From assembly GCF_000027125.1 (NCBI RefSeq), contig NC_017626.1: a DNA stretch of 64,000 nt; one strand, given 5' to 3'. The stretch is from Escherichia coli 042. Its GTDB lineage: Bacteria > Pseudomonadota > Gammaproteobacteria > Enterobacterales > Enterobacteriaceae. Positions 7,801-10,800 of this stretch are shown in pieces (the stretch's first letter is position 1; each line of letters begins with the position of its first letter). The position numbers are program-made.

Positions 7801-10800
7801 TGCTGCATAATACGCAACACTTCGCCTACCAGTTCAGGATCGAGCGCCGAGGTAGGTTCATCAAACAGTAAAACTTCCGGTTCCATCGCCAGCGCCCGCG
7901 CGATAGAAACACGCTGTTGCTGACCACCGGACAGGTGCACCGGGTATTTCCCCTGCGCACGTTCGTCTATCCCGACTTTCGCCAGATACTTCACCGCCCG
8001 CTCGCGCGCTTCCTGCTTGCTCAGGCCCAACACCTGAATCGGCGCTTCCATGACGTTTTCCAGCACCGTCATATGGCTCCAGAGATTGAAGTGCTGGAAT
8101 ACCATCGTCAGGCGTGTGCGCAGTAAGCGCAGCTGATTTTTATCGGCGACTTTGAGTTGACCATCTTTGTCGCGCACCAGATTGATCGTCTGGCCATTGA
8201 CCACGATCGACCCTTCACTCGGTTTTTCGAGGAAGTTAATGCAGCGCAGAAAGGTACTTTTCCCCGATCCCGACGATCCGATGATGCTTATGACATCTCC
8301 GGCATTCGCTTGCAGTGAGACCCCTTTCAGCACTTCGTGTTCGCCGTAGCGTTTGTGCAAATCGATAACGTTTAATTTATTCTCGGACATCGTATTCTCA
8401 GTGCGTTGAAGAAGGTTTCACATGCTGCAACCAGCGTTTTTCCGCTCTGCGAAAGAGGCTGATCAGGACATAAGAGACCCCTTTCAGCACTTCGTGTTCG
8501 CCGTAGCGTTTGTGCAAATCGATAACGTTTAATTTATTCTCGGACATCGTATTCTCAGTGCGTTGAAGAAGGTTTCACATGCTGCAACCAGCGTTTTTCC
8601 GCTCTGCGAAAGAGGCTGATCAGGACATAAGAGATGATTAAATAGAGCACCGCGGCAATGCCGAAGGCGGTAAAAGGTTGATACGTGGCGGCGTTAATAT
8701 CGCGGGCTATTTTCAGCAGATCCGGCACCGTGGCCGTAAACGCCAGCGCAGTAGAGTGCAGCATCAGGATCACTTCGTTGCTGTATGCCGGTAACGCAAT
8801 ACGCAGCGCAGAAGGCAAAATAATGCAGCGATACATTTTAAAGGTCGAGAAGCCATAGGCTCTGGCGGCTTCGATTTCCCCATGCGGCACTGAACGGATC
8901 GCTCCGGCAAAAATCTCGGTAGTGTAAGCGCAGGTGTTGAGCGTCAGCGCCAGCACGGTACAGTTCAGGCCACTGCGAAAAAAGGCGTTAAGGAACTCGG
9001 TTCCCTTAACAATTTCCAGCGTGTACATGCCGGAATAGAACACCAGCAACTGAACATACAGCGGCGTACCGCGAAAAATATACGTAAATAACCAGATTGG
9101 AAACTGGATGTATTTATTACTTGAGACGCGACCAATCGCCAGAAACAGCGCCATGACTCCGCCTATCACTACCGACAAAATCAGCAGCCACAGGGTGATC
9201 GCCACGCCAGTAAAGCGATAACCGTCGGTCCACAGCAGTGGTTTCCAGTATTCATGTAAGATTTCGATCACAGGTCAGCCCTCTTCACACCCACGGAGTA
9301 GCGGCGCTCAAGGAACAGCAGCACACCATTGGAAACGGTGGTGAAAACCAGGTAAATCACGCCACAAACGATGGCGAAATAGAACGGTTCCCAGGTACTT
9401 TTGCCTGCCAGTTGGGTGGCTTTGACCACATCTTCCAGGCCAAGTAACGAAACCAGAGCGGTAGATTTGAGGATCACCTGCCAGTTGTTGCCAATGCCTG
9501 GCAGGGCGTAACGCATCATCGCCGGAAACATGATCCGCCGAAACACTTGCCCACGAGTAAAACCGAACGCCGTCGCCGCCTCTATATGCCCTTTCGGCAC
9601 AGCCATAAACGCGCCACGGAACGTTTCGGTAAAGTAAGCACCGTAGATAAAACCGAGAGTAATAATACCTGCGACCATCGGATCAATATCAATCTGCCCG
9701 ACGCCCATCGCCTCCGTCACCGTGTTTAGTGCAATCTGCAAACCGTAGAAAATCAGCAGCATCAACACCAAGTCCGGCACGCCACGAATCAGCGTGGTGT
9801 AGCCTTCGAAAATCAGCCCCGAAAGCCGATTTTGCGAGAGCTTACCGCCAGCGCCAATTAAACCGATGATTACAGCGAGCACTACAGAGCTGATAGCCAG
9901 CTCCAGCGTGACGAGCGCACCCTGTAAAATAACACCTGAAAACCCATACAACATGCAGCCTGTCCTGTCGTGTGTGGTGAATTACCGCCTCTTGTCTCCC
10001 TCCGGTTACCTGAAGGGAGCGGGCTTTCTTTCACCGATGGCGATTAACCACCATAAACATCAAAATCGAAGTACTTTTTCGCTAATTTCTCGTAAGTACC
10101 GTCAGCGCGCATTTCGGCAAAGGCTTTGTTCAGTGCCTCGCGCAGTTCGTTATCTTCTTTACGCAGGCCCATGCCGGTCCCTACGCCAAACAGTTTTTCA
10201 TCTTTAACAGACGGGCCACCGAATTTGTAATCTTTACCGACTGGCTGCTTGAGGAAACCTTCGCTGGCAGCGACCTCATCCTGGAACGCGGCATCAATAC
10301 GTCCGGCAGTCAGGTCAGAATAAATGTTGTCCTGCCCCTGATACGAGACGATTTCAATGCCTTTTGGTGCCCAGTGTTCGTTACCGAACGTCTCCTGGGT
10401 GGTGCCCTGCAATACGCCTACCCGCTTGCCTTTCAGCGACTCGACTGTCGGCTGAATGTCGGAATTTTTCGCCACCACCAGACGAGAATCGGCAGCGTAC
10501 AGTTTGTCGGTGAAGGCAATTTCTTGCTGACGTTTTTCCGTAATGGAAAGCGATGACATGATGGCGTCAATCTTCTTCGCTTTTAAGGACGGGATTAACG
10601 CATCCAGTGGGTTTTCGACAAACGTACATTGCGTATTGATGCGTTTGCACAACTCCTTCGCCAGATCGATATCGAAGCCAACCAGTTCGCCTTGTGAATT
10701 TTTTGATTCAAATGGCGCATAGGTCGGATCGGTACCGATGCGGATGTTTTGCGGAATCGCAGCAAACGCCGCAGTTGCGCTGGAGAAGGCCAGAACCAGA

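Follow-up and report, generated by a model that had tools for sequence, protein, structure and literature searches.

The junction between hisM and hisP, which encode the permease of the histidine/LAO ABC transporter and its ATPase, is duplicated in the 64,000-nucleotide (nt) stretch of Escherichia coli 042 analyzed here (contig NC_017626.1 of assembly GCF_000027125.1; hereafter the window). We consider it probable, at roughly 0.68, that this is a genuine and recent microhomology-mediated tandem duplication (MTD), tolerated through a translational relay, whose breakpoint has been reused. Tandem Repeats Finder placed a perfect head-to-tail array at 8317-8634, with a period of 157 nt, 2.0 copies and 100% matches. 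A repeat search and direct string comparison both gave two abutting copies, 8317-8473 and 8474-8630, which are 100% identical and start 157 nt apart. The match extends 4 nt beyond the second copy (GAGA, 8631-8634), making an array of 2 x 157 + 4 nt; GAGA on the plus strand is TCTC on the coding strand, and the duplicated allele holds three such 4-nt arms. A perfect repeat of this length cannot be due to chance, and the 64-kb window contains no other such long tandem repeat except one REP array. An earlier reading made from the sequence alone (the sequence-only reading) had placed a tandem duplication across the hisM stop and the hisP start, and this stands. Its period of 156 nt was one short and its coordinates were off by one, and the segments it had declared identical, 8321-8476 and 8477-8632, are not identical by direct string comparison. 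The 157-nt junction can be recognized in sequencing reads by GCTGAAAGGGGTCTCTTATGTCCTGATC.

Both genes remain intact and full length, as had been supposed. hisM begins with a GTG codon that overlaps the hisQ stop; compared with a single-copy reference strain, HisP is unchanged and HisM carries one substitution, M40L. The predicted growth of the interval between the genes was also borne out: 164 nt (8391-8554) separate the hisM stop from the true hisP ATG, compared with 7 nt in annotated single-copy genomes. This interval has a regular internal structure. The arrangement of TGA, GAATACG and ATG is present twice, at 8545-8557 and 8388-8400, and because 157 - 7 = 150 is a multiple of 3, the frame opened by the extra hisP start runs on to the duplicated hisM stop. 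The result is a bridging open reading frame (ORF) whose joint sits within GGGGTCTC/TTATGTCC. In the order of transcription the locus thus reads hisM, TGA, 7 nt, the ATG of a 49-codon hisP'-'hisM ORF, TGA, 7 nt, and the ATG of hisP (Table 1). The product of the bridging ORF is deposited in RefSeq/GenBank as 'hypothetical protein [Escherichia coli]' (WP_404854071.1), a record that can now be explained as the chimera of a duplication.

Table 1. Features of the duplicated hisM–hisP junction, in window coordinates
Feature	Position	Strand	Remarks
hisM	8555..9271	-	Histidine/LAO ABC transporter permease, intact, 238 amino acids (aa); stop TGA 8555-8557
First stop-start spacer	8548..8554	-	7 nt, GAATACG; hisM TGA to extra hisP-type ATG
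Bridging ORF	8398..8547	-	Chimeric, in frame, 49 codons + TGA; ATG 8545-8547; HisP 1-25 joined to HisM 215-238
Second stop-start spacer	8391..8397	-	GAATACG again; duplicated hisM TGA to true hisP ATG
hisP	7617..8390	-	ABC transporter ATPase, intact, 257 aa
Microhomology arm 1	8631..8634	-	TCTC; hisM nt 638-641, codons I213/S214; upstream duplication boundary
Repeat copy 1 (transcription order)	8474..8630	-	hisM 3' 76 nt including TGA, 7-nt spacer, first 74 nt of hisP
Microhomology arm 2	8474-8477		First 4 plus-strand nt of copy 1; holds the novel junction GGGGTCTC/TTATGTCC
Repeat copy 2 (transcription order)	8317..8473	-	100% identical to copy 1
Microhomology arm 3	8317-8320	-	hisP nt 71-74, codons V24/S25

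The reading frame decides between two opposite predictions for hisP. The sequence-only reading described the extra start as a decoy that opens a 27-codon ORF, ending in SLMS and a stop about 70 nt short of hisP, so that coupling would be broken and HisP could be lowered. The extra ATG does stand in its native upstream context, 7 nt past the hisM stop, and the true start has been moved 164 nt away. However, the 27 codons were obtained because a period of 156 nt was assumed; the actual ORF is 49 codons long and leaves only 7 nt to the real ATG. The correction of a single base, from 156 to 157, thus reverses the predicted outcome from an uncoupling decoy to a relay ORF, and we regard a decoy that strands hisP as very improbable. 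A weaker version, in which some HisP is lost through imperfect re-initiation at two junctions, remains part of our preferred explanation.

The predicted stop-start coupling geometry is therefore duplicated, not broken. The hisP Shine–Dalgarno (SD) duplex is the weakest in the operon at -2.7 kcal/mol, those of argT, hisJ, hisQ and hisM ranging from -4.9 to -6.3 (a computed proxy), and hisP expression probably relies on coupling to hisM translation. On reaching the end of hisM, ribosomes would re-initiate on the bridging ORF, read it to its end at the duplicated hisM stop and re-initiate once more on the true hisP, so that hisP expression would be relayed in two steps instead of being cut off; a unit out of frame would strand them. 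Our best inference is that HisP is still made, perhaps at a somewhat changed level, and that the allele is tolerated, being near-neutral or mildly altering HisP dosage. A scan for promoters and terminators, together with folding, found no promoter-like site, no terminator and no RNA or DNA structure of unusual stability in the duplicated unit, and the locus has no match in Rfam. A new internal promoter, terminator or structured RNA element was ruled out on the basis of the scan and of the folding of the duplicated transcript (z = 0.38).

The sequence-only reading had also raised the possibility that a perfect repeat reflects an error of assembly. Such an artefact of assembly or polishing, a repeat wrongly collapsed or expanded, would agree with the perfect identity of the copies and with the fact that some short-read contigs (L008, L011 and L013) end inside the repeat. 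Public records speak otherwise. The exact 49-aa chimera is recorded in the protein database on 13 public contigs, and no fewer than 13 contigs, drawn from independent assemblies of isolates and of metagenomes, show the same junction and ORF. Junction-bearing loci were found in four NCBI assemblies (GCA_036600035.1, GCA_036600595.1, GCA_027979275.1 and GCA_052648375.1) and in two metagenome assemblies from ENA; a related allele of 241 nt is present in two other ENA assemblies. One carrier (L001, GCA_036600035.1) is identical to the window over 10,150 nt; an ENA metagenome locus (L002) has no substitutions and one 1-nt gap; another (L004) is 99.45% identical, and a locus of B2 type (L003, GCA_052648375.1) 97.4% identical to the window, all four being duplicated. 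The contigs of GCA_036600595.1 (L008) and GCA_027979275.1 (L011) end within the repeat and still contain the junction. Copy number is exactly two in all resolved carriers. The junction therefore recurs in assemblies from different projects and pipelines, as judged by contig naming, and in three genetic backgrounds, and the single-nucleotide polymorphisms (SNPs) in the copies match each background. To our knowledge, de Bruijn graph assemblers do not invent junction k-mers. We take the duplication to be real and reject the artefact reading as extremely improbable.

The allele is derived and rare. A 48-nt query centered on the 157-nt junction, whose halves lie below the megablast word size so that neither seeds alone, had no match in 5,426 complete E. 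coli genomes, and an exact junction scan of JGI metagenome contigs likewise gave none. A longer query of 80 nt was uninformative, single-copy complete genomes matching it as two joined pieces. Two of the recovered loci show further irregularities. In L002 (ENA ERZ28623246 scaffold_371), positions 2417-2516 hold 100 nt in place of the window's 262 nt within argT, which was not called as a gene; we suspect a scaffold gap, not a deletion. L004 (positions 324-1038 of ENA ERZ28580464 scaffold_7511) is identical to the window in hisM and rpnB and carries 13 differences from it, in hisP only and beginning 2 nt past the repeat, many of them B2-type alleles. Recombination, a further independent event or a mixture of strains in the assembly could each account for this patch.

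Single-copy relatives indicate that the event is recent. In the reference the span is 157 nt shorter than in the window. Searching through the window's exact RpnB allele led to two single-copy relatives, a metagenome contig (L009) and LR134238.1 (L010), both without a single substitution against the window over ~7 kb. These place the duplication recently within the window's lineage, and the suggestion of a recent event was thereby supported. Most inspected contigs with that RpnB allele are single copy. The instability also suggested by the sequence-only reading is plausible; the duplicated allele of this lineage has lasted long enough to turn up in several projects. LR134238.1 contains about a dozen 1-nt indels between positions 1310 and 2757, which break the gene calls of hisM and hisP into fragments; these may be uncorrected long-read error and not biology. 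In every segment tested, the window is 98.4-98.7% identical to the best of the 5,426 complete RefSeq E. coli genomes, and its zero-substitution relatives are found in non-RefSeq records, namely LR134238.1 and several draft or metagenome assemblies; this E. coli lineage is thus poorly represented among complete genomes.

The B2-type carrier points to a second origin. Over 10 kb, L003 matches several complete B2-type genomes at 100.0% identity; these genomes are single copy, with a span exactly 157 nt shorter. The two copies in L003 are identical to each other, and at two synonymous hisM sites, the same in each copy, they depart from the window's unit and carry the B2-type lineage's own alleles. 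By far the simplest reading is that this duplication arose independently. A single ancient duplication, homogenized by gene conversion and mostly lost, or spread by homologous recombination, would also account for two lineage-specific SNPs shared between the L003 copies, as concerted evolution predicts the same pattern. However, for all three carrier backgrounds there are single-copy relatives that differ over 7-10 kb by no or almost no substitutions, so that an ancient duplication would have to have been retained for long and yet lost extremely recently, many times over. Import by recombination predicts at least one donor unit with donor alleles at unit positions 25 and 31, which was not seen, and the 241-nt allele is a separate event in any case. 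We rejected both ancient duplication with concerted evolution and transfer by recombination on the evidence of the single-copy relatives and the SNPs, and hold either to be highly unlikely.

A protein search with the chimera recovered this third event as a 77-aa relative consisting of HisP 1-52, a serine and the same HisM tail. The two loci that encode it (L012 and L013) carry a perfect tandem duplication with a period of 241 nt and a 2-nt CT arm, in a background 100.0% identical to single-copy ST80-type genomes. As with the 157-nt unit, the frame is kept: 241 - 7 = 234, and the ORF is an in-frame chimera of 77 codons. The 241-nt junction, which contains TGCATTAACTCTTATGTCCTG, is absent from the complete E. 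coli genomes when queried with 48 nt. Its hisM-side crossover (hisM nt 639-640) falls within the TCTC of the 157-nt event (nt 638-641), and both types of duplication encode the same 24-residue HisM tail behind a HisP N-terminus.

This common tail raises the possibility that the HisP'-'HisM peptide is a functional micro-protein, for example a modulator of HisQMP2 acting through the HisM C-terminal tail. The tail is, however, an automatic consequence of the shared DNA breakpoint; the 49-aa peptide contains just half a transmembrane helix and a fragment of an ATPase beta-sheet, and the protein search returned no family outside these chimeras. We accordingly give this idea almost no weight and treat the peptide as a by-product.

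Taken together, the carriers record at least three independent uses of the shared hisM breakpoint, two for the 157-nt and one for the 241-nt duplication. In the single-copy sequence of L009, TCTC stands at hisM nt 638-641 and at hisP nt 71-74. When pairs of arms of at least 4 nt spanning the stop/start junction were counted in the single-copy sequence, with the unit limited to 600 nt, 574 were found, 236 of them in frame. The unused alternatives include several arms of 7-11 nt, which ought to be favored mechanistically. Repeated use of one 4-nt pair and of one shared end is not expected under a uniform model, and the recurrence points to a local hotspot, to selection or to both.

The nearest partner of at least 4 nt for the hisM site is the TCTC located 157 nt downstream, which suggests that a fixed end re-pairs with the nearest microhomology. 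In the model that we find most economical, a fixed DNA end would arise at hisM nt ~638-641, for example as a nascent 3' end released at a pause, and would re-pair with whichever usable microhomology lies closest, here the TCTC at a distance of 157 nt. The segment from hisM nt 642 to hisP nt 74 (157 nt) would in this way be copied head to tail between the two TCTC motifs, and purifying selection would then purge out-of-frame products that uncouple hisP. The operon is co-directional with replication on the E. coli map, and the shared end would thus be a nascent lagging-strand 3' end.

Selection for the duplication itself offers a different account of the recurrence. Here the allele would recur or spread through a benefit, either by retuning the HisP:HisQM ratio through two-step coupling and a second weak initiation site, or by serving as a contingency-like switch that reversibly sets histidine/arginine/lysine uptake or the response to a toxic analogue. 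Three independent events at one junction, against at least 574 alternative microhomology pairs, would fit such a benefit, as would the sampling of window-lineage carriers in several projects and the in-frame structure of both known duplications; MTDs are also documented elsewhere as reversible adaptive alleles (PMC8639346). Selection on dosage, however, leaves unexplained why the hisM-side breakpoints of two duplications agree within 2 nt. The allele is moreover missing from the 5,426 complete genomes and the JGI metagenome collection, and single copies prevail among the inspected contigs with the window's RpnB allele. We view positive selection as possible but rather unlikely. We are more doubtful still of a combined view in which the junction is a contingency-like site, where a site-specific pause of replication, or a break, at hisM nt ~638-641 repeatedly yields reversible in-frame duplications that are kept by selection on HisP dosage or on a modulating peptide. 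Lineages would in that case gain a switchable setting for basic amino-acid uptake.

Several points weigh against a neutral, relay-tolerated duplication with a reused breakpoint. No sequence or structural feature was found to explain a fixed end at hisM nt 638-641: DNA folding is unremarkable, with z between 0.08 and 0.46 for both strands of the single-copy region and for the duplicated region, and near the breakpoint there is just a weak hairpin, 12-28 nt upstream. The few events known were all found by protein similarity to an in-frame chimera; out-of-frame or very different junction duplications could be missed, which makes the argument from an in-frame filter weaker. A perfect 157-bp repeat should revert readily, and this sits uneasily with strict neutrality combined with spread; that the allele has lasted in several samples of one lineage could just as well reflect positive selection. 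Finally, we infer the translation relay and the near-neutrality from geometry and SD strength. On the same folding values, hairpin-driven slippage was set aside as unsupported.

Short HisP proteins in public databases were considered as possible products of out-of-frame duplications, and this was rejected: in a retrieval of truncated HisP proteins that was not exhaustive, the tails behind the HisP N-terminus were hisP frameshifts, contig ends or unrelated sequence, and never hisM. Many of these short N-termini break off or shift frame at AAAGGGGTCTC (hisP codons 22-28, window ~8307-8327), the same place as the hisP-side duplication arm. They come from E. coli, Klebsiella and Salmonella (records P0005, P0009, P0011, P0048, P0065, P0076 and P0092) and may stem from sequencing errors at homopolymers, from real hisP pseudogenes or from insertions.

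Elsewhere in the window, the REP array mentioned above occupies 14966-15416 in the cvpA-dedD intergenic region and consists of five tandem 91-nt units of REP/BIME type with 96% matches. Four copies match Rfam naRNA4 (RF02564) on the minus strand at 77-83 bits, and the array also produces staggered self-matches. We presume it to be the known REP325/naRNA4 array, and it is not part of the hisM–hisP finding. A tRNA gene lies at 50933-51004 on the plus strand. The best complete-genome matches to 45001-64000 cover 69-73% of this segment, reaching to about 58.2-58.9 kb, with a phase-variable autotransporter adhesin (UpaE), fadL, yfdC and mlaA named in them; the final ~5 kb of the window are probably variable or lineage-specific sequence.

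We found no prior description of a hisM, hisP or hisJQMP duplication in the literature, and the closest known systems are of four kinds. The first is the MTD class, defined in Schizosaccharomyces pombe (Dan et al., PNAS 2021, PMC8639346) and later catalogued in a range of microbes, E. coli among them (Wei et al., bioRxiv 2026, 10.64898/2026.02.28.708716). Among strain-specific tandem duplications MTDs predominate, and E. coli has ~13,000 variable tandem-duplication loci (bioRxiv 10.64898/2026.02.28.708716); in S. pombe they revert ~100 times faster than they form, and long GC-rich arms are ~1,000-fold more productive (PMC8639346). Judged on the features that can be read from sequence, the hisM–hisP duplication belongs to this class: its copies abut, it has single-copy relatives, and the arms that flank the ancestral segment have become three in the duplicated allele. 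As in other MTDs, an arm-flanked single-copy segment has become two head-to-tail copies, the state varies between strains of one species, and by analogy reversion would be expected through recombination or slippage between the copies. It differs from MTDs in general in that the unit straddles a coupled stop and start, leaving both genes whole and creating a new in-frame bridging ORF; in that a short arm (4 nt, 50% GC) was used with longer ones lying nearby; and in that the same pair, or the same hisM site, has been reused in independent natural lineages.

The second is translational coupling by termination and re-initiation, which the locus resembles in having a stop and a start 7 nt apart with a weak SD downstream, an arrangement reproduced exactly at both ends of the bridging ORF. 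Unlike ordinary coupling, it is predicted to work as a two-step relay through an extra 49-codon ORF without evident function. The third kind comprises upstream or leader ORFs, in that a short ORF ends right before the hisP start and could set downstream initiation. Here, however, that ORF derives from duplicated coding sequence and not from a conserved regulatory element, and no sensing feature such as rare codons, an attenuator or a stalling motif was seen in it. The fourth is the phase-variable repeat of contingency loci, with which the allele shares a perfect tandem repeat whose expansion and contraction could in principle reversibly alter expression. In contrast to such loci, the unit is 157 nt and not 1-10 nt, every resolved carrier has two copies, the hisM and hisP frames are unshifted and there is no sign of switching; the variable copy number and on/off frame that define a phase-variable locus are thus not present.

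As a type of mutation the duplication is ordinary, since E. coli genomes hold thousands of strain-specific microhomology-mediated duplications. Its breakpoint has served at least three times in wild E. coli strains that are unrelated, despite hundreds of equal or better pairs, which sets it apart from these and points to an unrecognized hotspot or to selection. With its relay geometry, the allele is in effect an experiment already set up by nature on how far coupling between genes can be carried.

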